Shown here piece after piece: positions 24,729 to 64,000 of a stretch of 64,000 bases of DNA. Under the pieces are notes generated by a model, which worked only from the letters and a program-made list of their open reading frames with translations, was not told where the DNA came from and searched no databases. The position numbers were made by a program, and so were the translations under genes. The DNA lies in the IMG/VR virus record IMGVR_UViG_3300025030_000004, positions 102,653 through 166,652 of that record. One strand, 5' to 3'. Source of the stretch: a virus. How positions within the stretch are numbered: position 1 is the first letter of the stretch; every line of letters starts with the position of its first letter.

Positions 24729-24800
24729 TATATTTCCTCCTTTATTAATCTTCAAAATACCACGGTATAAACTACTTTCATTTGTTTTGTTCTAAATAAG

Positions 24801-34970: not shown

Positions 34971-35287
34971 AGTAAAAACCACTAAAAACTTCTAAGACTA
35001 GATAAAAATAATATCTAGTCTTTTTTCTTTCCTTATTCTGCCCTAAACTCAATTCCTCATTTTCAATCCTTCAATTACAAAATCACAGCCACAAAAAGGC
35101 CTCTCTAAGCGTTTTAAGCCTTCAGCCGGATATAATTCCATTCCAGACCTAATTTAAATAGCTTATAATCGATTTACATAAAATATACAGCTAATTCAAG
35201 CCAATTCTACTAAATTGTTTACATTTTAACTACAATAAAATAGGACTAAAAACATGCTATAAATGAGTTAAAAATAATAAATAATGC

Positions 35288-35316
35288 TTGACGTATTTAT
35301 TATTTTAGTTTAAAAT
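35288..35316 (+). promoter_or_regulatory. SigA-type promoter of long early operon
   Basis: TTGACG-17-TAAAAT with AT-rich UP region. Confidence 0.7.
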
Positions 35317-35664: not shown

Positions 35665-35829
35665 ATGGCAAAATTTAGAGGCATTATAACAGACCAACTC
35701 AAAACATTAGAGACTCGTAAAACTGGTTTTTATGATACATACAAAGAGGCACACGACAAAGCCGAAAAACTTTGCAAGAAAACTATGGGAGACCGTGGAC
35801 AAATTGAAGTTGAGGAAATAACCGAATAA
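35665..35829 (+). CDS. Small early protein enclosed by inverted repeat
   Basis: GAGGAG SD. Confidence 0.65.
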   Translation: MAKFRGIITDQLKTLETRKTGFYDTYKEAHDKAEKLCKKTMGDRGQIEVEEITE

Positions 35830-36152
35830 CATAACAAAACGCTATGCTTTAAGGCAGACTAAAAATGTTTAGTTTAAATACTCTCTTTTGTAGGGTTATT
35901 AATCCCTTAAAAATCCTCATAAAACTTTAAGCATAACAAACTCATATTGTATCTAATATGTTTACATTCTAATTCCGCCGAATCTCTTATTAGGGTTGCC
36001 GAAAAGACAATAAGCGGATGATAGTAAACACTAAATATTAGATATAGAGTCACGTTATAATTAAAGATAATAAAAAGGATTATAACAGGGATTAAAAACA
36101 AACGAGAGTATATCTTTTTTAGTGCTTGCTTAGTAAAAAGGAGATTGATAAC

Positions 36153-36425
36153 ATGACTTATAACAAACTTTTAAATATCAATAAAAGTAAGGCCAGAAAA
36201 GAGGTTATTAAGATTTTTGGCGAAAGTTTTACAGAAAACTCAGCATATCACAAAATTTATGATATGAGTGAAAAAGAGTTTAGACTTGAATTTGTTACTT
36301 TAGATGATTTTATTAAAAATATTATTATTAAAGCTGAGTTCGCAGAAATGCCAGAAGCTGAAATACTCAAAGAGGCTTTTGATCATTTTAACGCGAATGA
36401 AGGATTATTCAATTCATTATTTTAA
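36153..36425 (+). CDS. Hypothetical early protein
   Basis: AAGGGAG SD. Confidence 0.65.
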   Translation: MTYNKLLNINKSKARKEVIKIFGESFTENSAYHKIYDMSEKEFRLEFVTLDDFIKNIIIKAEFAEMPEAEILKEAFDHFNANEGLFNSLF

Positions 36426-36547
36426 AAATAAGCAAGCAAGCATTAACAAAGCTATACTTTCTATAGCTTAACCCAACGAAAAAGACATTTTATATGTCTT
36501 TTCTCTATTGTTTTAATTAGAACGATAGAGAAAGGATATATAAAGGA

Positions 36548-36970
36548 GTGAATAACATGTCATATACTGCAATGCTTAAGAAGTGGGAAAGAGAGTCTAA
36601 AAAGAGATGGGAGCAGGATAGACAAGAAAGAAAAGCACAAAGGGAAAGAGCAGAGGTATTCAAGTTTGAAATATACCTTGCTAGGGAACGTCAAGAGAAG
36701 CAGGAACAAAAGGAAAGGGAAGAAAGACAAAAAAGGGTTATTGAAGCAAAAAATAATATTCTTTTAGCACTTCAGAAAAATAACCCTTTCAACTATTCTC
36801 AGTGGCTTATTATTTGGGATGTTCTAAACTATGATTATGATCAAATTTTAGTATCACTTAACAAAAGCAGAATAACAAAACTTGATATAACGGGAGCATT
36901 CGAGTATATCAAGAATTTTTCTCATGAGATTATATCAGATTATTGGGAAAAAGAATTATTAAGTGTATAA
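36548..36970 (+). CDS. Charged coiled-coil early protein
   Basis: AAGGAG SD; E/R/K/Q-rich N-terminus. Confidence 0.65.
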   Translation: MNNMSYTAMLKKWERESKKRWEQDRQERKAQRERAEVFKFEIYLARERQEKQEQKEREERQKRVIEAKNNILLALQKNNPFNYSQWLIIWDVLNYDYDQILVSLNKSRITKLDITGAFEYIKNFSHEIISDYWEKELLSV

Positions 36971-37108
36971 TAATCCTTAACAAGTTGGTTGTAAGTGTAC
37001 ACCATGATCTTATAACAGGTTATGGTGTATAGTTGGGAATCAATTTAAAAAGAGTTTTGAGAAATGACAAAAGACACTATTCAAGAAAATAAAGGGAGGA
37101 AAATTAAA

Positions 37109-37543
37109 ATGACATTACAAGAAATCAACAACACTTTAAATTCTGGTGTACAATGTTTAGTAGGTAAGAAAATGGAATACGGAGAAATCCACGCAGAAGT
37201 ACATGATGTTATAGAGAGCTTAAATATTGGCCTACAATACTATGCTTGGGACATATCACCTAAAACTAATTATAGTCTGAATATTTTTTCTATAAAACTT
37301 GAAACCCTAGATGACGCAAGGAGCAAGCATAAACGAGTAGGAAAAATTCAGGCCATTAGTTTTACTCTTAATTTTCCTGAATTCGCTGAACTTACTATCT
37401 CAGAATTATTTGAACATCAAGAAAGAAACGAAAAACTACAGAATATTGAGTATATCAAAGAATCTATTGTAAAAAGAGAAAAGGAAATTGAAGAATTAAA
37501 AAGATCATTAATTGAGGCCGAAAACAAATTAAACAACCTTTAA
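37109..37543 (+). CDS. Hypothetical early protein
   Basis: GGGAGG SD; C-terminal coiled coil. Confidence 0.65.
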   Translation: MTLQEINNTLNSGVQCLVGKKMEYGEIHAEVHDVIESLNIGLQYYAWDISPKTNYSLNIFSIKLETLDDARSKHKRVGKIQAISFTLNFPEFAELTISELFEHQERNEKLQNIEYIKESIVKREKEIEELKRSLIEAENKLNNL

Positions 37544-37634
37544 AATCATGTTTTGGTTGGATATTGGATAATAGTCTATAACAGATTTATTATCCAGTTT
37601 CGAGTCAAAATAACTAATCAAAGGAGTTGGAACA

Positions 37635-38006
37635 ATGGACTTAATCAAAAAATCTTTTAAAATCAATAACGTTCTTTTTTCAATAATCGAAAGCAGAGAA
37701 TACAATCTAATTAGTAATCATCCAAAGTATGATAACTATAGTCAACCACAAAAGGAGGTTCTAAAAACTGTATTGATACCGAAAATAAAAAATGTCATAG
37801 CGGAGCTAATAAGCAATAACAGGGACTACGAGTGTATCAAGTTAGAAAGTTTAAAAAGCAAGTATACAAAGACTGAGAAAAGTATAACAATTGACTTTGT
37901 ATATAATGACAAAAGGGAAAATGTCTATATTATTGCTAAAATATTTGATAATTTTAAACATGATTTATGGAATTCATTACTTGAATATAGACTATATGTA
38001 GCATAA
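37635..38006 (+). CDS. Hypothetical early protein
   Basis: AAGGAG SD. Confidence 0.65.
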   Translation: MDLIKKSFKINNVLFSIIESREYNLISNHPKYDNYSQPQKEVLKTVLIPKIKNVIAELISNNRDYECIKLESLKSKYTKTEKSITIDFVYNDKRENVYIIAKIFDNFKHDLWNSLLEYRLYVA

Positions 38007-38207
38007 ACAGTAACACAAACAGTATAAGAAATGGAAAATAATAATTTAGGGAATTACACTTAATTCCCTTTTAAGTCTATAACAATTAGAGTATAATAGT
38101 TCTAAGGGTTGTGGACTTAAAAGGTTGTTTAGGGTATAACAATCAACCTATAACAAAGCATAACAAGAACCTCCAAACATCGAGAGTAAAAAGAGGAGCG
38201 TGTAAAA

Positions 38208-38444
38208 ATGAAAAGCGAAACAATTAGAACAAGATTAGAAAGTCAATATTACATCATTACTACAGATGAACTTATGGAAAGGTTTTATAAAGAGTTCGAT
38301 TCCCTCCAAGATGCTTATAAGTATGGATTAAAATTAATCAAAGATGTCAAAGCGGTCAACATTGAATTAGAAATTAATGTAATTAATACAAGTGATGACT
38401 CTAATTCTAATGTCGTAAGAAATGAAACCATCTATCTTAAATAA
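38208..38444 (+). CDS. Hypothetical early protein
   Basis: GAGGAG SD. Confidence 0.65.
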   Translation: MKSETIRTRLESQYYIITTDELMERFYKEFDSLQDAYKYGLKLIKDVKAVNIELEINVINTSDDSNSNVVRNETIYLK

Positions 38445-38497
38445 CAATCCCATGAATCACGAATTTTATTTGCCGAATATGAAGGGAAGTTTTAAAA

Positions 38498-38746
38498 ATG
38501 AAACAAATGAGCATTAAACAACTTCAAAGTATTTCTTATTCACCTATTAAAGATGATTCTCTATTTGTTGAAGTTTTCAAGGGAAAAGGATTAAGCACAA
38601 ACGACGAATTAAAAACAGGTATGTACAATGAATGGAATGAAAAAAGAATCAAAAGAGCTTTTAATTTTGGCAATGGTACATTAAAAGACTTTCATAATTA
38701 TGTTAGAGATAATACTAAATATGCTGAATTTATTCAATTAGTATAA
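38498..38746 (+). CDS. Hypothetical early protein
   Basis: AAGGGA SD. Confidence 0.6.
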   Translation: MKQMSIKQLQSISYSPIKDDSLFVEVFKGKGLSTNDELKTGMYNEWNEKRIKRAFNFGNGTLKDFHNYVRDNTKYAEFIQLV

Positions 38747-38794
38747 CCCTTCGAAATCCAGTTTTTATACTTATTATGAAAGGATGTTTTAAGA

Positions 38795-38971
38795 ATGGCA
38801 AAAACTAAAGAAGAACTAAAAGAAGAACTTGAAGAAGCCCAGGAGAACGCGAACACACTTAAGGAGGAAATGGAGGATCTAAAAGAACAACTTGACAACG
38901 CAAAAGGAGACTATAGAGAAGCAATGGAGGAAATCAAAGCAATAAAGGCAGAACTAAAAAATTTAAAATAA
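38795..38971 (+). CDS. 58-aa coiled-coil protein (not in ORF track)
   Basis: MAKTKEELKEELEEAQENANTLKEEMEDLKEQL...; AAAGGA SD. Confidence 0.65.
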   Translation: MAKTKEELKEELEEAQENANTLKEEMEDLKEQLDNAKGDYREAMEEIKAIKAELKNLK

Positions 38972-39109
38972 ACCGAATAAAACCCAACATTCATAGGTGT
39001 ATGTTCTCTAAGTCGTTTTAGCTATAACACATATAACACAATGTTAAAACGACTTGAAGAGTGTAAACTTTGACACTCTATAATAAAATCAAGAAAGAGG
39101 TCATGTAAA

Positions 39110-39964
39110 ATGTACAATTCCACATCAACCATTAATCAAGCGTTAACCCTATCTAAACTCAACCAACTTGCTCCTTCAGTTTTTTCCAGTTCTGCCCGTG
39201 ATGGATTATCAACCAAATATAATTTTATTCCCACTGTTCAAGTCGTAAAAGAAATGGAAAAAGAAGGATGGCTCCCAGTTAAGGCAATTGAGTCAAGAAC
39301 ACGGAACGAACAAAATCAAGGTTATCAAAAGCATATGGTCAGATTTAGAAATTTCAATGAACAAGTTGAAAATAAGTTAATGGTAGGAGACACTTTTGTT
39401 GAACTTGTTCTAACTAATAGTCATAATGGTCTTTCCTCATTTGTTTTCAATTGTGGCCTTTTCCGACTAGCTTGCTCAAATGGTATGGTTGTCTCAGAAT
39501 CATCCTTCGATACTGCCCGAATTCGCCATAACAGCTATGAAGCGACACAAGTAATAGACATATGTGGAGAAACAGTGAAAAAAGCTCCTCAAATAACTGG
39601 AGCGGTCGAAACGATGAAAAGTATAGAATTAAGTCCAGTTGAGCAGTTAATATTTGCGAATGCAGCAAAACCTTTACGTTTTGATAAACCAAATGAAATT
39701 GAATCAGAGCGAATTCTCTTACCTCATCGTATGGTAGATAAGGGCAATGACTTATGGAAAACTTTTAACCGCACACAAGAGAACTTAATCAAAGGGAATG
39801 TAAGATATGACAGACGCGACGAGAACGGACGTTACCAAGGCCGAAGTCACACAAGAGAAGTAAAGGCAATTGATAACAATCTCAAATTAAATCAGGCATT
39901 ATGGACGCTTGCCGAAGAAATGGCAAAACTGAAAACTGGTAATAGTACCATGGCAGCACGTTAA
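39110..39964 (+). CDS. DUF932-family protein
   Basis: 'APSVF..LSTKY.FIPT', 'KHMVRFR', 'NSHNG.SS', 'GLFRLACSNGMV', 'DLWKTFN..QEN'. Confidence 0.85.
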   Translation: MYNSTSTINQALTLSKLNQLAPSVFSSSARDGLSTKYNFIPTVQVVKEMEKEGWLPVKAIESRTRNEQNQGYQKHMVRFRNFNEQVENKLMVGDTFVELVLTNSHNGLSSFVFNCGLFRLACSNGMVVSESSFDTARIRHNSYEATQVIDICGETVKKAPQITGAVETMKSIELSPVEQLIFANAAKPLRFDKPNEIESERILLPHRMVDKGNDLWKTFNRTQENLIKGNVRYDRRDENGRYQGRSHTREVKAIDNNLKLNQALWTLAEEMAKLKTGNSTMAAR

Positions 39965-40093
39965 TACATAGCATTAAGTTAATCGAGTATCCTTTAACAG
40001 TACACTATACTAATATAATAAACGTTGGTATAGTGTACAAATTAAAAGGTATTTTATTAATATCTTTATAACAAATTAAGGAGTGAATTACAT

Positions 40094-41362
40094 ATGTCAA
40101 AACATTATGTCAAAAACCTTGAAACTGGCAAAATTGAACTTCATTTTTCAAAATCTGAATATCAAGCCTTATCCGACGAACTAAAAAAAGAATTAAAAAG
40201 ATCATATCTTTTTAGTGGCACGTCAAAAGCTTGGGTATCTCGTTCAATCCATAACCAATGGGGAGCAATTGAGACAGCAAAAAAACTAGGATTCATAGAA
40301 GAAAAAAAAATAGGCGAACGTCTAAGTTATGAAGAACAATTAGAACGCAAACAAGAAAAAGCAGAACACAGAGCAGACAGATATGACCAATATGCTGAAA
40401 ATGCGAATAACAGAGGCAAGGCAATGCAATCTGAATTAGAAAAATATCGGGGAGACATTGCTTTCCACACTCAACCTATTATTTCCGGTCATGCAGGATC
40501 TCAGGCATTCGGAAGACGTAGACAAAAAATCTATGACAGATATCACAAAGGATTCGAGGAATACCGAAAAAGCGAATATTTTCAAGATAGAGCAGAAACA
40601 GCAAGACAAACTGCTAATGCCACACAATTGAAAAATCCAATATACTTGAATAATAGGATTGAAGAGTGCAACAAAAGTATTAGAAAATTAGAAAAGAACT
40701 TAGTATATTATGACGATATTTTATACAAAAAAAATAATAATGAAGAGATTTCTAGTTTCTATCAAGAGAAAACAGCCGAACAGATACAAGGTTATTTGAA
40801 TGACACTATTGACAAAATTGAATGGCAAATGGATAAACTTGCATTTTTGCAAAATTGCATGGATTAAATTAAAATTGCCCTAGAGGAAAGCGGTGAAAAA
40901 ATGTATAACAAAGAGGATATTAAGCAGGGATATTTATTCCGGTGTTATCGTTTTAATTCTTGGGCAAGAGTTATTCGAGTTAATCCTAAGACCATAACAG
41001 CCGTATATATTGAACATCCACTAACTGGACATGATGCCTCTTGTCCGTATGCCGAAATCAAGGAAATAAAAATACCTGAAGATTGGAAAGATGAAAAGGA
41101 AGTAAAAACAGAAAATCCTTTTAAGATTGGTGATATTGTTTGCAAACACAGACCGGCCGATAATAGTATTTACAGAGCTTTCCAAATTGTTAAAACCACA
41201 GAAAAATCTGTAACCATTCAAAGGATTGAAGTAATAGACCATAAACCTGTTAAGGATATTTTTATCGGCGATAAGCAAGAAAGAAAACAAGTTAAAAAAG
41301 ATAGACAGGGAAATTTCGTATTAAATCATGATGATTGGTATCTATACAAATATACAGCATAA
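40094..41362 (+). pseudogene. DUF3560-family protein split by in-frame TAA at 40865
   Basis: 'KAEHRADRY..AE', 'QPIISGH', 'YLNNRI'; ORFs 40094-40867 and 40901-41362 are in one frame with an open linker. Confidence 0.7.
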
Positions 41363-41647
41363 GGGACTATAACAAAGTCCCTTCCCTAATACAGCCTACT
41401 TACAACATATCATTTTCAATTATGGACAGTTGACGAAAAAAGAAATACTATTGAATGTATTGATACTAGACACACAAGAAAAGAGATGATAAAAGACATA
41501 GAAAATGGTATTATAAAGATGCCTGAAATTGTAATTAATAATACTGATTAATTTTAGGTTGAAATCTGAAGCATAGAATATCTATAACAATAACCCTTCT
41601 ATGTTTCGACTTGAGTCTAAAAATTAATTAAGAAAGAGGGTATAAAA

Positions 41648-42112
41648 ATGTTTGAAAAAATTAATTGGGTAAAAATCATGGAAGACAACCGCGAATCAAT
41701 TGAGGAAACCATCAGAGAAGCAAAGAAAGAAACATATAACACTATGCAAGGATGGCACTATGACGTAGAAATCAATGAAAAAGGCGAATCATGGACTAGT
41801 GGTCCTCATTCCAATTCTCAGTCTATGTCGAGCTATAAAGGCGAAACATATATTGTATGTTCACTTAAATCATGGAGCGCAGACTATTATGATGTTCGTG
41901 ATTATATCAGATATGACAAGGAATTAAATGATGAATTTTTAGTACAAAAAGAAAATGAAGATGGTTATGACTCTGAATACGAGTTTATCGAAAATATCCA
42001 TCCTGAAAAATTGGATGAGTGGACAGAAGATGAAAAAGAAGCAGAATTGAGTGAATTCGATCCTAGTGAATTGCTTGACAGGGCAATCCAAGAAGAAAAA
42101 TGGTCTGTTTGA
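41648..42112 (+). CDS. Acidic hypothetical protein
   Basis: AGAGGG SD; Asp/Glu-rich. Confidence 0.65.
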   Translation: MFEKINWVKIMEDNRESIEETIREAKKETYNTMQGWHYDVEINEKGESWTSGPHSNSQSMSSYKGETYIVCSLKSWSADYYDVRDYIRYDKELNDEFLVQKENEDGYDSEYEFIENIHPEKLDEWTEDEKEAELSEFDPSELLDRAIQEEKWSV

Positions 42113-42204
42113 TTAATTTTACTTGGAGAATAGGCAATAACAGCGAACCACTATAACAGCAGGTATTGCCTTCCTTTCGAGGTAAAGTTGATTAAATATG
42201 AGGA

Positions 42205-42441
42205 GTGGGAAGAATGGAATTTGAAAAGAATGAGAATATTATTCAAGGGTTTTCAGAAGGGAGAAGAGAATTTTATATTCAAATCTTAGAAAAAGGTTAT
42301 AATTGTATTTCTCTTAACATCAATGGAGTAAAAGAAAAATCTGAATTCTGCTATATTCCCGAACAAGTTTTAAAATGGGCTGAAAAATTTTGTTTATATA
42401 TCAGTGATGAAGAATATGAGAAATTAGAACGATTGCTTTAA
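42205..42441 (+). CDS. Hypothetical protein (may extend through TAA to 42507)
   Basis: GAGGAG SD; protein-like in-frame continuation after stop. Confidence 0.55.
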   Translation: MGRMEFEKNENIIQGFSEGRREFYIQILEKGYNCISLNINGVKEKSEFCYIPEQVLKWAEKFCLYISDEEYEKLERLL

Positions 42442-42630
42442 ATCGAGTTTGCCGAAAAAGATGCCGAGAAAAGAACTAAAAGACATCTTAATGCTTATGG
42501 TTTCTAGGGCAGTCAATGCCCTTTAAATCATCCAAATCTACATAACAATCATAACAGCACCATTGTAGAGGTTGGAGAATTTAGAGGATGTTGAATCCTA
42601 AAATAAAGTGAGTGAAAGGATGATTAAATT

Positions 42631-42867
42631 ATGCCAAATATGAGTTATTGCAGATTCGAGAATACACTAATAGATGTCAATGATTGTATAAATGCCTTAG
42701 AGGAAAGAAATATCTCTTCAAATAGAGAGAAAAGCAAAGCAAGTAAAATGCTAACGTCAATCTGTAAATTCTTAGTGGTTGAAGGAATTATTGATAATTA
42801 TGATCAAGATATTATCAATGGACTTATTGAAGTGTGCGGAGAACAAGAAGATGAGGAAGACGAATAA
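42631..42867 (+). CDS. Conserved small phage protein (MSYCRFENT type)
   Basis: 'NMSYCRFENT..D..DC' N-terminus. Confidence 0.65.
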   Translation: MPNMSYCRFENTLIDVNDCINALEERNISSNREKSKASKMLTSICKFLVVEGIIDNYDQDIINGLIEVCGEQEDEEDE

Positions 42868-42994
42868 ATCATAGGGAATATTAATTCCCTTTTGAATAAT
42901 CCTGTAAACGCTATAACAGCACACTATAAACCCTTGCAGGATGTTCAAAAGAGTGTTAAATACTCTAAATATAATTAATTGGAGGAATGGACAA

Positions 42995-43282
42995 ATGATA
43001 ACTAAAACACCATTAAAAGTCACTGTAAATATTGATTATTCAAAGGTAAACCTTGACAAAATAAGAACACTCTATGACTTATTACCCTATAGTTTGAAAT
43101 CTCACCATGAGACTTTAAATGATTTTATTAAGGATACCTTACAAGAAATTATCTTTACAACTTCACATATGATCTACCAAGGGACTTATACCATAGAAGA
43201 ATATATTAAGGAAACATTGGCACAAATTGAGGATATAAAAGCTAGGTACTACACTGATTTTCTTTTAGCACTTAATCAATAA
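42995..43282 (+). CDS. Hypothetical protein (possible 3' frameshift)
   Basis: GGAGG SD. Confidence 0.55.
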   Translation: MITKTPLKVTVNIDYSKVNLDKIRTLYDLLPYSLKSHHETLNDFIKDTLQEIIFTTSHMIYQGTYTIEEYIKETLAQIEDIKARYYTDFLLALNQ

Positions 43283-43377
43283 AGGGTTTAAAATCTGGAT
43301 AGAAAACGAAGATAATTATTGTGGCCATTATTAACAACTTATTGAAAGTCTAATATAATAAATGGGAGGCTATAACA

Positions 43378-43650
43378 ATGAACCAAAAATCATGGGAACT
43401 AAAGAACACTAAACAAGTAACAGAAGAGTTATGTTGTAATTGCCAAACCCCTATAACAATTCATTTGCATTATGATGACTTAAGGTTCTGCGAAGAATGC
43501 AGGAATGAAATAACAGCCAGCTACAACGCAAAGCTAAAAGACCCTGAAGAGCAAGAACACATTAACAGATATATTAATTGTGAAGACTTTCTAGAGTCTG
43601 TTTACGAAGAATTGAGTTATGTACCAAGGGGAATTGATGAAAGATTTTAA
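43378..43650 (+). CDS. Zn-finger hypothetical protein
   Basis: CCNC...CEEC; GGGAGG SD. Confidence 0.6.
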   Translation: MNQKSWELKNTKQVTEELCCNCQTPITIHLHYDDLRFCEECRNEITASYNAKLKDPEEQEHINRYINCEDFLESVYEELSYVPRGIDERF

Positions 43651-43734
43651 AGAGCTTTATGCTCTTTGCTCAGTATTTAAACAATATAATAAATATTGAG
43701 CAAGGAATATAAAACTAAAAAGGAGGTTAACCAA

Positions 43735-43836
43735 ATGACAAAAGACAAACAAATATTCATATTTCAAAACCTAACATTTTTACTAGCATTTCTTTTAATG
43801 TGGGCAACAGGAATCATTAAAGTAGTGCATAATTAA
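43735..43836 (+). CDS. 33-aa single-TM peptide (not in ORF track)
   Basis: MTKDKQIFIFQNLTFLLAFLLMWATGIIKVVHN; AAGGAGGT SD. Confidence 0.6.
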   Translation: MTKDKQIFIFQNLTFLLAFLLMWATGIIKVVHN

Positions 43837-43985
43837 ACAATGTAGGCTCTGGACTCAAGGCAAAAACAAATGTCTAGTCCCTGCAAGTCTATTCACATCC
43901 GAGCAAGTTATAAAAATTCACAGTGATTCACTGGTAATGGCATAACCGCCATAACAGCAACAACACTATAATGGGAGGGAATTCT

Positions 43986-44153
43986 ATGATTGATAACAGC
44001 AGTATTTATATTGTCGAAGCCTCAGAGGATGGAGAAAAGTTTCAATATGAATATGGAAACATCAAACACGCTGAAGAACATTATAACAATGAAAAAATTG
44101 CCATAATATATGAATATAACAATGGTAATTATTATCTTGTAAAGAGTAAATAA
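43986..44153 (+). CDS. Small hypothetical protein
   Basis: GGGAGG SD. Confidence 0.55.
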   Translation: MIDNSSIYIVEASEDGEKFQYEYGNIKHAEEHYNNEKIAIIYEYNNGNYYLVKSK

Positions 44154-44177
44154 ATAAATTTTAAGGAGGAAATAACA

Positions 44178-44456
44178 ATGTTCACTTATGACGATTACTC
44201 TTCAGGTATGAAACAAACCATAACAGTGACAGACCAAAAGATCAAGGAATTATCTGACAAGATTCTATCCTTTATGAAATCTCAAAACCAAACAGATTAC
44301 AGTGACACTACAATCCATGAAAATGTTTATAAGTTTGACGTTGACTTTAATGATTATCCGTCTACCTATGGAGTATTAATGGAGATGAAAAAGCATGGAC
44401 TAGTTGAATCTATTCCGCTAGGTTGGAATGATTTTGCATGGAAGTTGATAAAATAA
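44178..44456 (+). CDS. Small protein, possibly winged helix
   Basis: AAGGAGG SD; 'VLMEMKKHGLVES..WKL'. Confidence 0.6.
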   Translation: MFTYDDYSSGMKQTITVTDQKIKELSDKILSFMKSQNQTDYSDTTIHENVYKFDVDFNDYPSTYGVLMEMKKHGLVESIPLGWNDFAWKLIK

Positions 44457-44490
44457 TTAATCACTATACGCAAATTACCCTATAATTTTC

Positions 44491-44745
44491 ATGAATATGT
44501 TTGTATTAAAACCCTTACATGGGCTAAAATTCAATAACAGGGAGGTATATGCTGTGCAAAGATTAACTAGACTCCAGCGTCAACAACTCCAATACATCAA
44601 TCGTCAAATTAAGTATAACAGCCTAACGGGTATAGTTCTGGACGTTGCCTATTATACTATCGATCCTTTTATTATGAGCGCTAAAGTAAATCTATCTAAT
44701 GGTCAAACCGAAATTATACCATTGTCAGATATAATGTTAAAATAA
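44491..44745 (+). CDS. Hypothetical protein
   Basis: Internal GGAGGT SD suggests GTG start near 44554. Confidence 0.5.
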   Translation: MNMFVLKPLHGLKFNNREVYAVQRLTRLQRQQLQYINRQIKYNSLTGIVLDVAYYTIDPFIMSAKVNLSNGQTEIIPLSDIMLK

Positions 44746-44771
44746 TTATGTGGGAAGGAAGTATATTATAA

Positions 44772-45017
44772 ATGTCAAAATCTAACACGGAAATTATAAC
44801 ACTTGCAGCACGGCAGAAAAATTTCAATTATACTGGCGATAATCTTTTCACCTTCGCCGAATGGAGCGCAATGGGTTATAAGATTAACAAAGGGCAAAGA
44901 GCGTTCATTCAAGTCCGGCTATGGTCTAGCGGAGTTAACAAAAGATTAAAACCTGAAAGTTTGTTCAAAGTGGATCAGGTGACTAAGTTAGATGTTAAGA
45001 ATTTAATTATCATATAA
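44772..45017 (+). CDS. ArdC N-terminal-like (ssDNA-binding) small protein
   Basis: 'LFTFAEWSAMGYKINKGQRA' matches TFxxWxxxGxxVxKGxKA motif. Confidence 0.6.
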   Translation: MSKSNTEIITLAARQKNFNYTGDNLFTFAEWSAMGYKINKGQRAFIQVRLWSSGVNKRLKPESLFKVDQVTKLDVKNLIII

Positions 45018-45151
45018 CAGCACCAAATAATAAGTCCTTTAACGCAGACATATTCCCCTATATTCTGCATAACAAATGATATATAATAAATGTAGGATAT
45101 ATAATGTGTTTGTGTTAAAGTCCTTGTATGGGCTATAATTAAAGGGAGGGT

Positions 45152-45358
45152 ATGCAAATGTTTTTAATGAGAATGAGAAGAGAAGGATATCAACCAGTTA
45201 CAGCAAGAATTCACAGTGTTGGAAGCAATGCTATATGTGATGAATTTCATGTAGAATTTGTTACAAGATTATCGACTAATGTAGAATCATATCCTACAGG
45301 AGATATTAGAGTAGTAATATCAGACTTGGAACATCATGGGTTTAAAAAGATTGACTAA
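45152..45358 (+). CDS. Hypothetical protein
   Basis: GGGAGG SD with upstream TATAAT. Confidence 0.55.
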   Translation: MQMFLMRMRREGYQPVTARIHSVGSNAICDEFHVEFVTRLSTNVESYPTGDIRVVISDLEHHGFKKID

Positions 45359-45472
45359 TCCAAGAAAACTATTATTTCATGCCAAGTATGGGATTTCAAA
45401 ACCCTTATAACACAAGGGTTTCAGGGTTCATATGTTTTTGGAATTAAGTAAAATTAGAGGGAGTGTTTAAAA

Positions 45473-45943
45473 ATGAGCAAATTGTATGTAAACAAGGAAT
45501 ATTTAGAGGATTTCTCAAAAGAAATTATGGAGGATACACAGGTTGCTACTTTAGACAATGAAGAGGGGTATATCATTGTCAATGAAGACTACAAAGAAGA
45601 GTTTAATCAAAAGTATCACATTGAATTAGTAGAATTAGAAAAATGGCTCGAAGGTAAATATGATTATAGTGCGGTTGCTGAATTGATTTATGAGATACAA
45701 GAGGTCGAAGATAGTTTGAGTGATTGTTGGGAACAGAAAACCTTAACAGACTTTTATGGAAAAAGAGTAATTCAAAAAGGATTTAAGCTTTTATTTTCAA
45801 AAAACGATTCAGAAATTATTGACCATATTTTAAACAGAGAAAAACTTGATAGTCTTTTTAAGGGATTGCTTAAACCTATAATGGTAAAAGAGGCAGTAGA
45901 TTGGCACAAGGAAAAGATTAAACAATTAAAAGCATGTTTATAA
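45473..45943 (+). CDS. Acidic hypothetical protein
   Basis: GAGGGAG SD. Confidence 0.65.
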   Translation: MSKLYVNKEYLEDFSKEIMEDTQVATLDNEEGYIIVNEDYKEEFNQKYHIELVELEKWLEGKYDYSAVAELIYEIQEVEDSLSDCWEQKTLTDFYGKRVIQKGFKLLFSKNDSEIIDHILNREKLDSLFKGLLKPIMVKEAVDWHKEKIKQLKACL

Positions 45944-46000
45944 CAGCATGAATAGCAAGCTTTATCGGTTTTCAATATAACAGAGAAGGGATGATATTCC

Positions 46001-46273
46001 ATGACTTATGAAGAAGCTAAAGCATATGGAGAAGAATTGATGGAAAGAAATAAAATTGATTCAGATAATCTAAAATTCTTTGATGAAATATACGGAAGAA
46101 GTTCAATGGGTTTAACTCCAGATCATGTTAAGGCATTGCCTGAATGGAAAGAAGCGAAAGAAACATTTAATAAATCTTTTACTGAACTAAGAAATTTTAA
46201 TGCATGGTTCACAAAAACATTTAAAAAAGAATATATGGCTGAAAGACGTAATAGGCGATACAATCAAAAGTAA
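46001..46273 (+). CDS. Conserved small phage protein
   Basis: 'MGLTPDHVK..PEW...LRNFN' motif. Confidence 0.65.
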   Translation: MTYEEAKAYGEELMERNKIDSDNLKFFDEIYGRSSMGLTPDHVKALPEWKEAKETFNKSFTELRNFNAWFTKTFKKEYMAERRNRRYNQK

Positions 46274-46339
46274 ATTCTATTTGCTACACGTACGCATGTG
46301 TGCTACAATCATACCATCACACACAAAGGAGGTCTCACA

Positions 46340-46483
46340 ATGCAAGTATCACTTAACACTCGAATTGAATTAGAATTACGCCAACGTTTAGATGCTTATG
46401 TTAAAAAAACAAATCGTCCTATAGCGCAAATAACAGCCGAGGCTATTGAGAAATATTTAGACGAAAAGGATAAAAAAGATTAA
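46340..46483 (+). CDS. Ribbon-helix-helix DNA-binding protein
   Basis: MQVSLNTRIELELRQRLDAYVKKTNRPIAQITAEAIEKYL. Confidence 0.75.
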   Translation: MQVSLNTRIELELRQRLDAYVKKTNRPIAQITAEAIEKYLDEKDKKD

Positions 46484-46490
46484 AATTTTA

Positions 46491-46519
46491 TTGACGTATG
46501 CGTGCAAGCGTGCTATAAT
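46491..46519 (+). promoter_or_regulatory. SigA promoter with operator-like spacer
   Basis: TTGACG-17-TATAAT; spacer related to that of the promoter at 46280. Confidence 0.7.
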
Positions 46520-46557
46520 TGGTTTAAGAAATTAATCATGAAAGGAAGTATGTAAAA

Positions 46558-46791
46558 ATGGCAAGATTTAATTTATCTTCGAGTCAATCAGACCGTATCA
46601 ATTATGATCAAGAGGTAAAATCCTACGCTTATGATTGTGCCTCTGAGTCAAAAACATCCAAACTCACAAATCAAATAATAGAAACATATTGGGAGCAATT
46701 TAGCGATAATTTAGATACAGATGATATTGAAGAGGCTGAAGCAAGATTTAAAGATATGTTTCCTGAAGGATGGAAAAGTTATTTTAATTAA
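46558..46791 (+). CDS. Small acidic protein (anti-defence candidate)
   Basis: 77 aa, Asp/Glu-rich. Confidence 0.6.
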   Translation: MARFNLSSSQSDRINYDQEVKSYAYDCASESKTSKLTNQIIETYWEQFSDNLDTDDIEEAEARFKDMFPEGWKSYFN

Positions 46792-46814
46792 ATTAAATTA
46801 GGAGTGATTTAATT

Positions 46815-47057
46815 ATGGCAAAAGTTTATGAATTTAGTGCAAATCCTGAATCTGAATTTAAGAATGGTATTCTTGCTGGATTCAATGAAAACGCAATCTC
46901 GGGTAGTGAATATGATTCAGAACGAGCAAAAAATCTTTATGATACGTTAGATGCCTCTATGGATGACGAGGAATATATGCTAGGTGAATTACCTAGCGGT
47001 AAATGGGCATTGATTGGGTTAACGATATCGGGTTATGAGTTTGCGGTTGAGGACTAA
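46815..47057 (+). CDS. Small acidic protein (anti-defence candidate)
   Basis: 80 aa, Asp/Glu-rich. Confidence 0.6.
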   Translation: MAKVYEFSANPESEFKNGILAGFNENAISGSEYDSERAKNLYDTLDASMDDEEYMLGELPSGKWALIGLTISGYEFAVED

Positions 47058-47524
47058 TGGCTAGAACGCACTCAATGAATCGAAAAAAACTTACAATTGA
47101 TGAAATGAAGGCATTGGCAGAATCAAAAGGCGGTCAATGCCTTTCAAATCAGTACGTAAATAACACAACACCTCTCACGTGGCAATGTTCCAAAGGACAT
47201 AAATGGGACGCAAGGCCAGTAGAAATCAAAAACCTAAATACCTGGTGCCCACACTGCTCGGGACGCAGAAAAACTATTCAGGATATGCGTAAGTTTGCCG
47301 AATCTAAAGGCGGTAAATGTTTGTCTGGTAAATATATCAACAATGATACTAAGTTACTTTGGGAGTGTCATAGAGGGCATAGATGGACAGCAAAGCCATT
47401 TAGTATCATTCATCTTAAGAGTTGGTGTCCATTTTGTTACCAAATTCGAAATAAAATGAATAGAAAATTAAGACCAAAACGCAAAAGAAATTTAATTTTT
47501 TCAAAATTGTATTTGGAAGTTTAA
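47057..47524 (+). CDS. Tandem zinc-ribbon repeat protein
   Basis: Two copies of 'AESKGG.CLS..Y.NN.T.L.W.C..GH.W...WCP.C'. Confidence 0.8.
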   Translation: MARTHSMNRKKLTIDEMKALAESKGGQCLSNQYVNNTTPLTWQCSKGHKWDARPVEIKNLNTWCPHCSGRRKTIQDMRKFAESKGGKCLSGKYINNDTKLLWECHRGHRWTAKPFSIIHLKSWCPFCYQIRNKMNRKLRPKRKRNLIFSKLYLEV

Positions 47525-47755
47525 TACAGCAAACGCCGTGATGCCTTCGGGCGATATGTTTTGTATGAGGCGGTTGCGGATATATGTGACGTGGTAAATA
47601 TAATTATTATTTAAATTGCTATTTTTATTAGGTTATGAATGATATACAGAATAGTTATAACAGTTGACACATTTTCTTTGGGAATCTATTGCATTTTCTT
47701 CCATCTAAGAATATACTATCATCAAGAAATAAAAAATATTAAGGAGCGATGTAAA

Positions 47756-48865
47756 ATGTCAAGAAGAAAACCTGCCAATCAACCTTGGAACATCAAACAA
47801 ATTAACACCATGATTAACAAAGGAACTATATCCTTCACGCATCCACTTCAACGTCCTGCCGATCAATGGGAGTTAGTAAACAAGACTCTACTAATTGATT
47901 CTCTATTAACACTCTATTGTCCAGACGTTTTTGCAATCAAAGAGAAGACAGAGCAAGGTAATGTATACTCCATAATTGATGGTAAACAGAGATTAACAAC
48001 TATACATAGTTATATTGCCGACAAATGGGAACTTGGAACAGTTGAACCATTCAGCCTAGAGGCAACAGGTAATGAGACATATAATATCTCAGGTAAAAAG
48101 TTCTCAGAACTGCCCGAAGAAGTCCAAAACGAAATAACAGGTTACACTTTAGGAGTCAAAGTCTTTGAAATAGAAGAGGGAGACGATGAAGAATCAATCA
48201 TTGAGGAAATTTTCTATCGGTTAAATAATGGTAAAGGAATGTCAAAAGAACACAAGGCATTAGTCAGAGCGTCCCATAAAGTACAAAAGTTTGTTCATAG
48301 AATAGCAACAGAGCATAAATTATTTACTGAAGTTGCTAAATTCTCAGAAGGTGCTATCAAAAAGTCAGATATCCAAATGACCATTCTGCAAAGTATTCTA
48401 ACTATCTCAGGACTTGATTTTAATTCATTTGCAGCAAAAGATGTTGAACAAGTATTTGCCGATAATGATATAACAGACTCAATCCTAGACATCACAGAGA
48501 AGTCCTTCGATGCAATTCTTGAAGCATTCCCTGAAAAGCATAAGTTTGTAACAAAGATTAATATTTCTTCAATGGCTTACCTGTTCGCAATCAGCTTGAA
48601 TCATGCTGATACTATTAATAGACTCTTAACTTATGCTAACAGCAAGTCATTACCTGCCGATGAGTATAAACGGTTTACAGGTTCAGGCAATGTTAAGAAG
48701 GTAAATGTATTAAGTAGAATGAAGGGCATCCTGAGTATTTGCGGAGTAGAGAAAAGAGAATTGGTTGAAGAAAATCAATCCGATATAACACCAGACCTTG
48801 AAGAATCAAATGATTATAGGGAAGAAGCAGAATCCATTCTCGAAATAATTAATAATGTAGCGTAA
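47756..48865 (+). CDS. DUF262 (ParB/Srx-like, GmrS-type) domain protein
   Basis: 'LQRP..QW', 'LIDSLL', 'IIDGKQRLTTI', 'IFYRLNNG'. Confidence 0.85.
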   Translation: MSRRKPANQPWNIKQINTMINKGTISFTHPLQRPADQWELVNKTLLIDSLLTLYCPDVFAIKEKTEQGNVYSIIDGKQRLTTIHSYIADKWELGTVEPFSLEATGNETYNISGKKFSELPEEVQNEITGYTLGVKVFEIEEGDDEESIIEEIFYRLNNGKGMSKEHKALVRASHKVQKFVHRIATEHKLFTEVAKFSEGAIKKSDIQMTILQSILTISGLDFNSFAAKDVEQVFADNDITDSILDITEKSFDAILEAFPEKHKFVTKINISSMAYLFAISLNHADTINRLLTYANSKSLPADEYKRFTGSGNVKKVNVLSRMKGILSICGVEKRELVEENQSDITPDLEESNDYREEAESILEIINNVA

Positions 48866-48956
48866 AATAATTAATGGCAGGAGCAATAACAATCTATAAC
48901 AAAGAGTTGATATACTTTCTAGAGTGGGATTAAATAAATTTGAGGAGGAATACATA

Positions 48957-49215
48957 ATGGTTAAAGAGCCAAGTTTTGATCAATTGAGAATGGTAATGGA
49001 AGGTTGAAAAGGTAGACCAACAAAAGAAAAAAGAAGATAGCTTAAATCTTGTCGGACAGCTTAAAAAGGGAGATTGGTTTTATATCAATAAGTCTGGTAA
49101 TGCTATCGTTTTTAAGTTTGAAAAGGTTGAAGGGAAAAGAATAATTGCAACAAATCCCATTGATAATTGTCAAGCAAGAATAGATATCAGTTTTCAAATT
49201 GGAATGCTTAAATAA
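48957..49215 (+). pseudogene. Frameshifted small gene
   Basis: GAGGAGG SD; MVKEPSFDQLRMVME continues in a shifted frame as VEKVDQQKKKEDSLNLVGQLKKGDWFY... Confidence 0.55.
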
Positions 49216-49276
49216 CATAATGGCTTAAATGGCAGAATTCATTGTAATTAAAATAAAATTTGAGAGGAGATTGAAA

Positions 49277-49489
49277 ATGAAAAACAGGTTTTATATTAAT
49301 GACGAAGATTCACACTGGGGTGATTTTAATTATGTCGTAACACCAGAAGGTAAAAAAATTGAGTATTCTTATCTTTGTACAAGAGAGGGAGATGCCCCTC
49401 CAAAAGATAGAAATTATATACTAGCATATGAAACAAATGGAGAAGATTACTCAATTATTGTTGATCCTTATAATACGCAATTAGATTAA
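49277..49489 (+). CDS. Hypothetical protein
   Basis: GAGGAG SD before MKNRF. Confidence 0.55.
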   Translation: MKNRFYINDEDSHWGDFNYVVTPEGKKIEYSYLCTREGDAPPKDRNYILAYETNGEDYSIIVDPYNTQLD

Positions 49490-49539
49490 AATATAACTTT
49501 CCTTGTATAACAAAAATAAAATAAAAAGGGGCGATACAT

Positions 49540-50058
49540 ATGAAAAAGGATTTAGTATCTGCAATTTCAACCAAAAAAGTAATAGGTGGAGACCTAACCG
49601 ATATCGAGGTAGCATCATTCAAGAAATCATGTACCCATAAACTTTCTAAAGAGAAATTAATCAAAACGATTCTATCATTTATCGATAACAACGATGTTCC
49701 AGAGAAAGATAAAGAGGTTTTTAATTTTATTCTTGACGATGATAAAATCCTAGATAAACTTCAAATTTGCACAGATGGTTCATATGTCAATGGTAGAATA
49801 TTTTATAAGAATTTTTATAACAATTGGGACTCTAATATTCAAGTTGATGGTAGGTTCTGGAATAAATTTTATAATGAGACTAGACAATCTTTAGATACTT
49901 TAACTAAAATAGATTATATGAAAGATAATTTTGAGGTTATGTATCTGCACCTTGTCAGTGATGAAGAAGCAATGGAAGATAAAATTTGGTCGGACGAAAT
50001 GGACAGAATATCAAATGATTTTGATAATGATTATCCTTGTGAATACTCAAGCCTTTAA
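49540..50058 (+). CDS. Hypothetical protein
   Basis: ORF with AAGGGG SD. Confidence 0.6.
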   Translation: MKKDLVSAISTKKVIGGDLTDIEVASFKKSCTHKLSKEKLIKTILSFIDNNDVPEKDKEVFNFILDDDKILDKLQICTDGSYVNGRIFYKNFYNNWDSNIQVDGRFWNKFYNETRQSLDTLTKIDYMKDNFEVMYLHLVSDEEAMEDKIWSDEMDRISNDFDNDYPCEYSSL

Positions 50059-50209
50059 ATCAGATGCTTTAAAATCACTCTTTGGTTGCCTTTGAGACAG
50101 GGAATAAAAATAAATTTCTCTGTCTTTTTAATATCCTATTGTTATTATTTATTACTTATTGTATAATTTAGTTAGTAAAACAAATATAATTAATTGGGGG
50201 AATAAGATA

Positions 50210-50392
50210 ATGAGCATATACACAGAAAATGGTTATAAGAACCGGAAAGACTATCTCAGATGTATGTCAGAGGACTACGATATACCTTTAGAAGTAGTTT
50301 ATTCTCTTTCTTCGATGCTTGGCCCTAATGAGGATTTTGATGGTTTAGTAAATACATTAGAAGATGCAGAAGGAGAATTCGAAGAAGAATAG
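50210..50392 (+). CDS. Small acidic conserved phage protein
   Basis: 'NGYKNRKDYL...LGPNEDFDGLV'. Confidence 0.6.
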   Translation: MSIYTENGYKNRKDYLRCMSEDYDIPLEVVYSLSSMLGPNEDFDGLVNTLEDAEGEFEEE

Positions 50393-50451
50393 ATAGGGAA
50401 GTCTAACAAACTTCCTTTAATACTAAAATAAATTTAAGGAGTGACCATAAG

Positions 50452-51762
50452 ATGTCAAAGTACAATTTTAAGGAATTTTTCACAAATAATGTCGTGTACA
50501 GTGACAAGATAATACATAATAGTGAATATGTTAGTAATACTCATTTTCTTATTAAGAAGACTGAGCTTAAAAACAATCAATTAGAATTTGTAAACAATTT
50601 TCCTGAAGCGGGTATAAATTATAACAATCAATTCTCTCAAATAATTTCCAGTCAATTAAAAATGGATATTGGCACAGAATTTAAACCGGAAAGAATCAAT
50701 GTAGGATATGATAATAATATTGTTATCATGGGTGAAGTAGGGATTAAGGAAGGCTATTTAAATTTCCTTGAATCCTTAAAATGTAAATTGTTTGTCATGG
50801 AAAGCGATAGGAAATGGAATCCCTTATCAATCTATAACAATGACAATAAATTTGTTGGTGTGGTATTACCGATTAAATTAAGTACATTAAATGAATCTAT
50901 AGACTATAATGATTATCTTGATAATCTAAAAGTAGCACAAGAAGCCAAGGAGTTAACCAAACAAAACTCTAAGAAATGCTTATATATCAAAGATAATAAA
51001 GCAGTAGTTAGAAATAAAGAACTAACATGTCTTGCAGAATTGATCAATGATAGATCCTATAACAATCTATATATTGAAAAATCTGACAAACAAGATGTTG
51101 AAGTTTATATTGATCTTGATGTAGTTTGTGTGTTCATTAGAACTATTCAGAAAGATAGATTGCTTGAAGATGTAGACTATTATCTCAAACATCTAACTGA
51201 ATACACATTGGAAATCGCATTAAAAAGTATTTATCATCGTAAAGAATATAATCAATTTGTCAATGTAGCAGACATTAAACTTGTTGAACTCTCAGGAGCC
51301 ACTAAAGAGCAAGTACAAGAACTAATTAATTATCGTCAAGAATGGTATAACAGGAAGGCTCAAGAAGATCAAGAGAAGAAATTAAAACGAGAACAAGAAG
51401 AAAAGGAATATATAGAAGATAAAAATAAATTAATTGAAGATTTAGTATTAGTAGCAGAACAGGCAATCTTAAACAAACAGGAAGTCAAGAATCAAGAAAT
51501 AACAATATATAAATCTAGATATGACTCAAATGACACTAGTTTGATACTTTACCTGATGAAATTATATGAAATTAAAGTACCTTTAAAAACTCAAGGATGG
51601 ATCAACAATGCCTTAGCAGACATTGGTTTTAACGAAGATACTAATGCTTATAATTACAGTTATTATAAGTCTTCTGCTAATAGTATGGTATTTATGAAGT
51701 ATTTGAGATGGTTAATTGAAGCTATTGAGAACAAGTATAATATTTCTGTCGTAGCAAAATGA
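50452..51762 (+). CDS. Hypothetical protein
   Basis: 436 aa; C-terminal 'IKVPLKTQGWIN'. Confidence 0.7.
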   Translation: MSKYNFKEFFTNNVVYSDKIIHNSEYVSNTHFLIKKTELKNNQLEFVNNFPEAGINYNNQFSQIISSQLKMDIGTEFKPERINVGYDNNIVIMGEVGIKEGYLNFLESLKCKLFVMESDRKWNPLSIYNNDNKFVGVVLPIKLSTLNESIDYNDYLDNLKVAQEAKELTKQNSKKCLYIKDNKAVVRNKELTCLAELINDRSYNNLYIEKSDKQDVEVYIDLDVVCVFIRTIQKDRLLEDVDYYLKHLTEYTLEIALKSIYHRKEYNQFVNVADIKLVELSGATKEQVQELINYRQEWYNRKAQEDQEKKLKREQEEKEYIEDKNKLIEDLVLVAEQAILNKQEVKNQEITIYKSRYDSNDTSLILYLMKLYEIKVPLKTQGWINNALADIGFNEDTNAYNYSYYKSSANSMVFMKYLRWLIEAIENKYNISVVAK

Positions 51763-51782
51763 AATTATAGGAGGAATACATT

Positions 51783-52067
51783 ATGACAATCCAAGATTTT
51801 GTGAACAAAGGAATCTCAGTAATTAATAACATGGGAGAATTAAGAACAGTTAGGAATGAACCAAAATATACTTCAATTCCATTCCCTAATGGATGGGTAG
51901 CAAGCGTTATACATGAAGATGAAGGGTATTCAGTAGCAACATGTGATTACAATGGTTACTTTAATTGGAATATCTTAAATGATTTTGGTGCAAATGATGA
52001 TGGAAAATTTAATTGCAAAACAGAAGATGAAGTGTGTAAGGCATTAGCAATAATTGAGAATTTATAA
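51783..52067 (+). CDS. Conserved phage protein
   Basis: 'FPNGWVASVI' motif; AGGAGG SD. Confidence 0.65.
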   Translation: MTIQDFVNKGISVINNMGELRTVRNEPKYTSIPFPNGWVASVIHEDEGYSVATCDYNGYFNWNILNDFGANDDGKFNCKTEDEVCKALAIIENL

Positions 52068-52254
52068 CCCTATTAAACATGCACTTTAAGACAATGTTAA
52101 AAGCCTAGTCTTAGAGACTAGACCTTTAACCTAAAAGAGATTGTCCAATGAGTAAGAGGAAGCTATTAAAACCCCTTACAGCTATATTATACTCAACTTA
52201 GGTTAGTTTTATTCCAAAGATGTAAAGCAATGGAAATTAAAGGAGGAGAATTTA

Positions 52255-63528: not shown

Positions 63529-63726
63529 ATGAAAATATTTTTTGAATTAGAAACAATAGAAACACCAAATAATTGTTCAAAATGTCCAATAGGTTATTAT
63601 GAAACTAATGATGATGGAGAATATGTTTATTGTGTTTTATTATCATATATCAAAAATGAGCAAGTCGAAGGTGATTTTACGAAACGTAGAAAAGATTGCC
63701 CTTTGAAGTTCGAAGATGAGAAATAA
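63529..63726 (+). CDS. Small Cys-rich phage protein
   Basis: 'PNNCSKCP...R.KDCPL'. Confidence 0.6.
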   Translation: MKIFFELETIETPNNCSKCPIGYYETNDDGEYVYCVLLSYIKNEQVEGDFTKRRKDCPLKFEDEK

Positions 63727-64000
63727 GTAAAATAGGAGTTATAAATTTCTTTTGTTAATTACGAGGAGATTTATAACTCTCAAATGAAATTCATAGTTTA
63801 TAGGGTACATAATGAACAATAAATAATTTTATTTAACCTCTTGTATTTGGTAGCAGGAGGTTATATAATTAATCAAACCCCACGAAATTATATTTTCAAT
63901 CTATTTTGAAAGGAATGATTTTTATGTTTGAAAAAGATGAAGTGGTATGGTGTAGACCTAATTTAAGTGATGCACCGATTTGTGGTAAATATGTTGAGAA

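Follow-up and report, generated by a model that had tools for sequence, protein, structure and literature searches.

The hexamer ATAACA is an oriented word of the early gene block of an SPbeta-like phage and is depleted from the same DNA strand elsewhere

INTRODUCTION

Between the small early genes of an uncultured, SPbeta-like phage lie long imperfect hairpins, several of which present the same hexamer, ATAACA, in their loops. Does this hexamer mark a family of RNA hairpins, or does it belong to something wider? The stretch of DNA in which the hairpins were noticed (hereafter the window) comprises the last 64 kb, bases 102,653-166,652, of the 166,652-bp IMG/VR record IMGVR_UViG_3300025030_000004 (G000), and coordinates without another label are positions in this 64-kb window. 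An earlier note on the window listed eleven such hairpins and proposed that they are processing or stabilizing stems of the sense transcript which also carry a shared protein-binding loop. Here, we examine both parts of that proposal by folding, by word statistics over the whole genome and by comparison with related phages.

The phage encodes a YonO single-subunit RNA polymerase (ORF 22089-24755, - strand) with 50% identity to SPbeta YonO and 59% to YonO of Clostridium phage D-1873, and no near-identical DNA was found in the phage or plasmid collections searched. The + strand carries the genes from ∼133 kb of the genome, past the record junction, up to 68 kb; those between 68 and 133 kb are on the - strand. 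Four closer relatives, G001, G002, G006 and G008, were found through YonO and DUF932 and have the layout and block of G000; the YonO phage G016 is less closely related (49% identity).

RESULTS

ATAACA is concentrated on one strand of the early block

In an unbiased scan, ATAACA was by far the most locally clustered hexamer of the genome (log-likelihood ratio, LLR, 108), and the runners-up were all overlapping variants of it. The + strand carries 90 copies, 69 of them at window 35,686-51,826, and the 82 copies of the - strand are evenly spread. The cluster coincides with a block of 34 small, mostly unknown early genes on the + strand (35665-52067), which contains the 69 + copies (4.2 per kb) and 4 - copies. 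Within the block the word is evenly spaced (median 204 nt) and occurs at least once in 29 of the 34 gene units. It is the commonest intergenic hexamer there, with 31 copies strictly inside gaps for 3.5 expected. The open reading frames (ORFs) of the block hold another 32, where synonymous shuffles predict 10.2 and codon-order shuffles 6.5, and none of the 500 shuffles reached this count; an artefact of composition or codon usage is ruled out by these two controls. Four copies overlap stop codons and four stand directly at a start codon, two immediately 5' of the ATG and two overlapping it. The flanks show a weak preference for C at -2, T at -1 and a purine at +6.

The hairpin loops account for a small part of this pattern. 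Nine of the 61 word clusters of the window lie in hairpin loops, and 22 of 189 over five genomes. Its density per 100 nt is 3.4 in apical loops, 0.77 in other intergenic sequence and 0.18 in stems, a 4.5-fold enrichment of loops over other intergenic sequence, but in accessibility it does not rise above hexamers of matched composition (gaps, p = 0.31; ORFs, p = 0.06). The earlier description of a shared ATAACA loop is too narrow, and we are confident that the loop is a single manifestation of an oriented word that extends over the block.

The same DNA strand is purged of the word outside the block

Outside the block, expectations were derived from synonymous shuffles. The + genes at 0-68 kb of the genome have 5 copies on the + DNA strand, where the word is sense, for 19.1 expected, and 24 on the - DNA strand for 23.9 expected. 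In the - genes at 68-134 kb, 7 copies are found on the + DNA strand, where the word is antisense, for 21.8 expected, and 26 on the - DNA strand, where it is sense, for 33.0 expected. The + DNA strand is therefore purged of ATAACA 3-4 fold outside the block, in either gene direction, and the opposite strand is at expectation. By rank of depletion, ATAACA is 6th of 1756 hexamers in + genes and its reverse complement TGTTAT is 4th of 1970 in - genes.

The other words at the top of the depletion lists are homopolymers and palindromic restriction-type sites (AGATCT, CTGCAG). Evasion of Type III or Type ISP restriction would explain the purge, but the block holds 69 copies in the very orientation that is purged, which contradicts it. 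No consistent replication-linked strand asymmetry was detected at four-fold sites. As an observation on its own, restriction-type palindromes are strongly avoided in the coding sequence of G000 and its relatives (AGATCT 1 versus 15, CTGCAG 1 versus 9, and also AGTACT, TTCGAA and GATC-containing words).

Block and purge recur in related phages

When G001, G002, G006 and G008 were pooled, the block ORFs contained 78 copies for 28.8 expected and the + genes outside the block 8 for 16.9. Their late (-) genes had 20 copies on the + strand for 54.7 expected (rank 4 of 2539) and 62 on the - strand for 63.3. The block is also present in G016 (34 versus 18.3 in ORFs), as is the late-gene purge (11 versus 20.8), which is thus seen in G000 plus five relatives, six genomes in all. 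Word-loop hairpins do not follow the block in the same way, none being found among 59 clusters in G002 and G006 together or among 56 in G016. A homologue in any of four relatives exists for only about seven of the 34 block ORFs; the word is kept at the locus while the genes turn over.

Further afield, SPbeta has no comparably clustered hexamer (maximum LLR 18), and the part of Clostridium phage D-1873 that was examined shows no clear word block. Scans of genome and viral contigs for three-word arrays gave, among the matches listed, mostly chance or tandem-repeat hits, G016 alone being useful; a dense stretch in G019 falls in two long called ORFs and probably reflects repetitive coding sequence.

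The stems are structures of the sense transcript

Every gap was folded, helices were parsed, and the arms around each word cluster were compared with shuffled arms. Ten of the eleven hairpins listed in the earlier note were confirmed and one more was found. In nine of these, arm pairing around the word was far above that of shuffled arms (z -3 to -6.9). The remaining listed hairpin, at 38123-38180 (+), has three ATAACA copies 14 and 10 nt apart, but its enclosing stem is not significant (z +1.0). All hairpins described here are on the + strand; E(+) and E(-) denote the folding energies of the + and - strands. At the left of the block, the hairpins at 36982-37046 (loop UAUAAC; E(+) -29.8, E(-) -12.2, z -5.3) and 37549-37612 (loop AUAAC; z -5.6) have 27 pairs each. 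Two copies of the word stand in the 20-nt loop of the hairpin at 39009-39056, which has a homologue at 12761-12830 of L003, a relative. The long hairpin at 41547-41628 carries the word in its loop, and that at 42113-42194 (E(+) -30.3, E(-) -10.5) carries two copies of ATAACAGC. The loop of the 41-pair hairpin at 42493-42613 again holds two copies, and the word is also in the loop of the hairpin at 42888-42951 (z -5.0). A 41-pair hairpin at 45019-45134, absent from the earlier list, has both ATAACA and TATAATAAA in its loop. The smaller members are an 8-bp hairpin at 41361-41383 with the 7-nt loop AUAACAA, one at 45391-45429 with the 7-nt loop AUAACAC, and an 8-bp hairpin at 50395-50417 with the variant loop CUAACAA. 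Word-loop stems are present in about half of the gaps of at least 50 nt between 37 and 45.5 kb, not in most of them as had been stated. Long sense hairpins without the word also occur, for example one of 29 pairs at 36485-36549 and similar ones at 39978-40061 and 43653-43716.

That the fold belongs to the sense transcript, first suggested by G-U mismatches, is borne out by two measures over five genomes. E(+) is lower than E(-) in all 22 word-loop hairpins (mean -26.9 versus -18.1 kcal/mol), and these contain 88 G-U pairs for 8 A-C 1x1 mismatches. Covariation in relatives, a check which the earlier note had named, gave the same picture in three homologous sets: 4 of 29, 9 of 26 and 1 of 20 pairs are changed on both sides with pairing kept, including the four pairs of the stem at 42113-42194 and the nine of that at 41547-41628. 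In these sets the loop retains the word, whereas its remaining letters vary. The stems mostly lack U-tails, and no ATAACA-loop stem is found among the 11 terminator-like sites of 34-52.5 kb (7.1 expected); they do not fit intrinsic terminators, in which a G+C-rich stem runs straight into a U-run. Stem length ranges from 14 to 41 pairs, and stems of RNase III type (about 20 bp or more, sense and intercistronic) are represented. We are confident that the stems are sense-transcript RNA elements. Strongly folding windows occur at similar density over the whole genome and their favoured strand follows gene direction; therefore, stems are a general feature of the transcripts of this phage and not specific to the block.

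An Rfam search of the window returned no family at gathering score or at E values as high as 5, the only matches being to generic models of microRNA-precursor hairpins, and twister-P5 ribozymes (RF02684) are not found in it above gathering score. Two relatives, on the other hand, have twister-P5 ribozymes in block gaps, at 16249-16311 of L030, a stretch of G001 (58.6 bits), and at 17544-17609 of L003 (57.1 bits). The variable loop of the L030 twister reads UAUAACAAAA and contains UAUAACA.

In T7 early mRNAs, RNase III stems lie between genes, and T4-type phages have promoter-early stem-loop (PeSL) cassettes. The stems described here resemble both in being long, imperfect, sense and without U-tails, among the small early genes of a hypervariable region, and some of them stand beside or around a -10-like TATAAT, as in PeSL. 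They differ in that no loop word is shared in those systems and in that five stems here have TATAAT inside the loop. The most likely role of the stems would be that of intercistronic processing or stabilizing elements of RNase III type, formed in the transcript of a repressor-controlled early polycistronic block. This part of the earlier proposal, sense stems without terminator tails, stands on the G-U asymmetry, the compensatory changes and the twisters in equivalent gaps. The shared protein-binding loop is unsupported as stated. The word is found as well in ORFs, in spacers between Shine-Dalgarno sequence (SD) and AUG and at stop codons; G002, G006 and G016 have the block without word-loop hairpins; and the purge affects the same DNA strand even where the word is antisense, which an RNA-binding site would not predict.

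Two side observations concern the stems. The -10-like TATAAT is in the apical loop of five long sense hairpins (38070-38121, 39978-40061, 43653-43716, 45019-45134 and 50141-50190), three of which carry it as TATAATAAA, a sequence also found upstream of several genes (39079, 43354). In an arrangement that resembles PeSL, read-through RNA would fold the whole stem of such a hairpin, and RNA initiated from the promoter in the loop would have no 5' arm. A small terminator-like hairpin, AGGGAAT...ATTCCCTTTT, is repeated at 38048-38072, 42873-42893 and L003 13470-13510, with ATAACA-bearing sequence directly after it.

DISCUSSION

What reads the word?

Since late genes are purged on their antisense side in six genomes but late messages tolerate the sense word, we lean slightly to ATAACA being a direction-dependent signal of the DNA strand, a tentative choice made with a little less than even confidence over a tag on RNA. 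We infer both the DNA-level role and the kind of reader. The hexamer would be an oriented word selected for density across the block, about one copy per 240 nt, and not a loop motif, the loops being the least constrained places for it; on the same DNA strand elsewhere it would be selected against in any gene direction. Such a one-strand signal could be read by a process that crosses the genome in one direction, for instance Chi/AddAB-type end processing, packaging or DNA entry, and may mark the accessory early block, adjoining the region where the pac site of SPbeta maps. The SPbeta pac site lies beside yonO (PMC8270828), and the equivalent position is here ∼10 kb from the block edge.

The nearest parallel would be the co-oriented, terminally clustered Chi sites of phages LLS, MD8 and P1 (PMC12315714). 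In both cases a short asymmetric word is the commonest oligomer and lies in nearly one orientation in one part of the genome, in coding and intergenic sequence alike. Co-orientation and clustering are plain in the 69 + and 4 - copies of the block, on a record whose terminal repeat is an assembly overlap and not a physical end. Unlike known Chi words, ATAACA is A-rich, and it has only six letters; a reading by AddAB or RecBCD would be hypothetical. It is also not over-represented in the clostridial genomes sampled: in five genomes of Clostridium and Enterocloster, which are not known hosts of the phage, the count of ATAACA relative to that of the reversed word ACAATA is 0.94-1.11.

These differences weigh against a DNA-strand signal of Chi type, as do several other points. 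Chi logic does not predict a purge elsewhere on the strand, and no reader protein was identified. The purge is missing from the + genes of G016 outside the block (13 versus 16.0 and 19 versus 16.6), and G016 has a second cluster in tail genes (19 versus 7.4), which lies on the other DNA strand and is sense there as well. The edges of the block coincide with a promoter and an operon end, and the word is enriched in apical loops and present in one twister loop. The last four of these points, the unpurged + genes and the opposite-strand sense cluster of G016, the operon-edge limits of the block and the loop enrichment, would be better fitted by a transcript-level signal.

Such a signal, which we rank second and regard as doubtful, would make AUAACA a single-stranded word on early messages for an RNA-binding protein or an endoribonuclease, with a logic like that of T4 RegB/RegA, MazF or CsrA, or for a processive antiterminator or anti-Rho; it would be presented in hairpin loops, ribozyme loops and SD-AUG spacers. 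Beyond the G016 cluster, which keeps the enrichment always sense, this explanation gains from the conservation of the word in homologous hairpin loops while neighbouring letters change, from four to five copies between SD and AUG, and from the start of the block directly after a strong promoter with a candidate operator; the phage also encodes a PemK/MazF-domain protein, its MazF genes being candidate readers, and its other + strand messages avoid the word (5 versus 19.1). Like the words of T4 RegB (GGAG) and MazF, ATAACA is short, is enriched in early messages and close to the SD, and the remaining messages of that strand avoid it. Unlike them, it is purged also from the antisense side of late genes (7 versus 21.8 in G000, 20 versus 54.7 in the pooled relatives, 11 versus 20.8 in G016), a purge not confined to sense, and late messages do not avoid it (26 versus 33 and 62 versus 63.3). 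Most copies, moreover, are in no special structure, and they are no more accessible than matched hexamers. Mimicry of an anticodon loop, for which the 7-nt loops AUAACAA and AUAACAC could serve as an AAC anticodon loop, was rejected as most copies are not in 7-nt loops.

The avoidance of TGTTAT by late genes on the YonO side, in six of six genomes tested, is the most general regularity of the data, and together with the tolerance of sense ATAACA in these genes it would suit a signal for the polymerase itself: TGTTAT/UGUUAU as a pause or termination site for the leftward, hairpin-insensitive YonO, with TATAAC perhaps acting as a -10-like element for rightward host RNA polymerase. It counts in favour that YonO has no flap domain, which hairpin termination requires, and that the promoter and terminator signals of YonO are undefined (PMC5467207). 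There is also a likeness to the T7 RNA polymerase class II site (ATCTGTT), which is strand-specific, hairpin-free and read by one polymerase, and shares CTGTT with the complement CTGTTAT; YonO, however, is unrelated to T7 RNA polymerase, and 69 copies stand here against one. Since no word cluster occurs at the late operon end near genome 68 kb, the + genes beyond it are purged of the supposed terminator instead of enriched, and two independent effects using reverse-complement words are needed, we consider this unlikely. Promoter-like sites are not in excess (117 versus 94) and the spacing of ATAACA to TATAAT is inconsistent; therefore, the word is not explained as a sigma-70 promoter element. 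For a TcdR/BotR-type -10 (GTTATA on the other strand), no TTTACA partner was seen at a suitable distance in the examples inspected. Least probable of all, and very unlikely in our estimate, is that the + strand hairpins act in single-stranded DNA, in initiation or recombination, as do plasmid sso/ssi sites, N4 hairpin promoters, Frpo or integron attC. Strand-specific long imperfect stems with a conserved loop hexamer do recall ssoA and its CS-6 loop, the block has genes of plasmid-leading-region type (DUF932, DUF3560 and a weak ArdC-N match), and its gene content is cassette-array-like. In Frpo and N4 promoters, though, the hairpin is on the template strand of the genes served, whereas the fold is here on the sense strand, which cannot be template; attC sites have complementary R''/R' boxes at the stem base and a variable loop, whereas here the loop letters are conserved and the stem bases unrelated. 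Most copies are outside hairpins, three relatives have none in hairpins, and no rolling-circle Rep, HUH nuclease or relaxase was seen in the ORFs scanned.

A comparison may finally be made with the SPBRE/MrpR operators of SPbeta, which number about ten, are 15 bp long and stand at early lytic gene promoters. The 69 copies of ATAACA, 32 of them in ORFs, are unlike these, and SPbeta itself has no clustered hexamer.

In its strongest form, the DNA-strand signal would be a new kind of genome-polarity signal, written densely on one strand of a hypervariable immediate-early block and erased from that strand elsewhere, through which a one-directional process or a strand-specific single-strand reader would treat the first-expressed accessory genes differently. 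This is possible but rather doubtful. We know of no such combination of positive and negative selection on the same word for Chi, KOPS/SRS, Ter, pac or any RNA regulon word. If ATAACA is a polar signal of DNA or of single strands, large temperate phages of anaerobic Firmicutes would have a new way to set apart their first-acting accessory, defence-related genes, and the word would provide a simple sequence marker to find such blocks in metagenomes. In any case, an apparent RNA hairpin-loop regulon can be one face of a strand rule that spans the genome and comes to light only through word statistics of the whole genome. SPbeta lacks the feature and the examined part of D-1873 does not clearly show it, so that the missing tool is a cultured phage of the clade with its host, or a reconstituted reporter.

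Promoter and gene content of the block, and other features

The strongest promoter of the block, TTGACG-17-TAAAAT at 35288-35316 (+), appears to be its main promoter (35269-35316). Its -35 element lies within a 39-bp palindrome with perfect arms (35269-35307), which is probably a repressor operator. A leader of ∼340 nt separates promoter and block (to 35664). The leader segment AAGGAGGT..TCAGACTC is also present in the relative L003 (8118-8956). The block ORFs with matches encode DUF932, DUF3560, GmrSD_N-like, treble-clef zinc-finger and weakly ArdC-N-like proteins. Strong folds specific to the - strand are found at ∼31794-31884 (E(-) -34.9, E(+) -11.3), near the divergent junction, and at ∼52089-52179 (E(-) -30.5, E(+) -17.0), directly past the right edge of the block.

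On the + strand outside the block, the phage encodes Pol III alpha, a DnaB-like helicase, a RecD2-like helicase, a PD-(D/E)XK nuclease, anaerobic NrdD, an MrpR-type repressor, the PemK/MazF-domain protein, TnpB and an actin-like segregation protein; Pol III alpha, the DnaB-like helicase and a DnaG-like primase form the replication set. The MrpR homologue is at 4987-5979 of L046, a stretch of the same genome. The TnpB (IS605 OrfB) gene is located at genome 16,849-18,039 (L046 9849-11039) and the actin-like (ALP_N) segregation gene at genome 60,573-61,469 (L048 4573-5469). By analogy with the TubZ-bearing phages D-1873 and c-st, the latter hints at a plasmid-prophage lifestyle. The - strand genes include portal and terminase-like genes, a PhoH-PIN gene and helicase genes. 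The two ends of the record share a 357-bp direct repeat (window 63644-64000, identical to genome 1-357), both edges of which lie inside ORFs. Since it interrupts two ORFs, the repeat represents an assembly overlap, from a sequence that is circular or permuted, and no physical genome end.

Two further groupings of ATAACA were noted in relatives. The second cluster of G016 spans ∼10033-12262 of L303, a stretch of G016 (50.0-52.3 kb, - strand), in tail/baseplate-like genes, with seven copies within ∼240 nt. In G001, at 46,703-46,799 (L030 704-800), five copies are gathered in one unstructured gap just past a terminator and 10 kb ahead of the main block, four of them upstream of a TTGACA-17-TAATAT promoter and one within its spacer.

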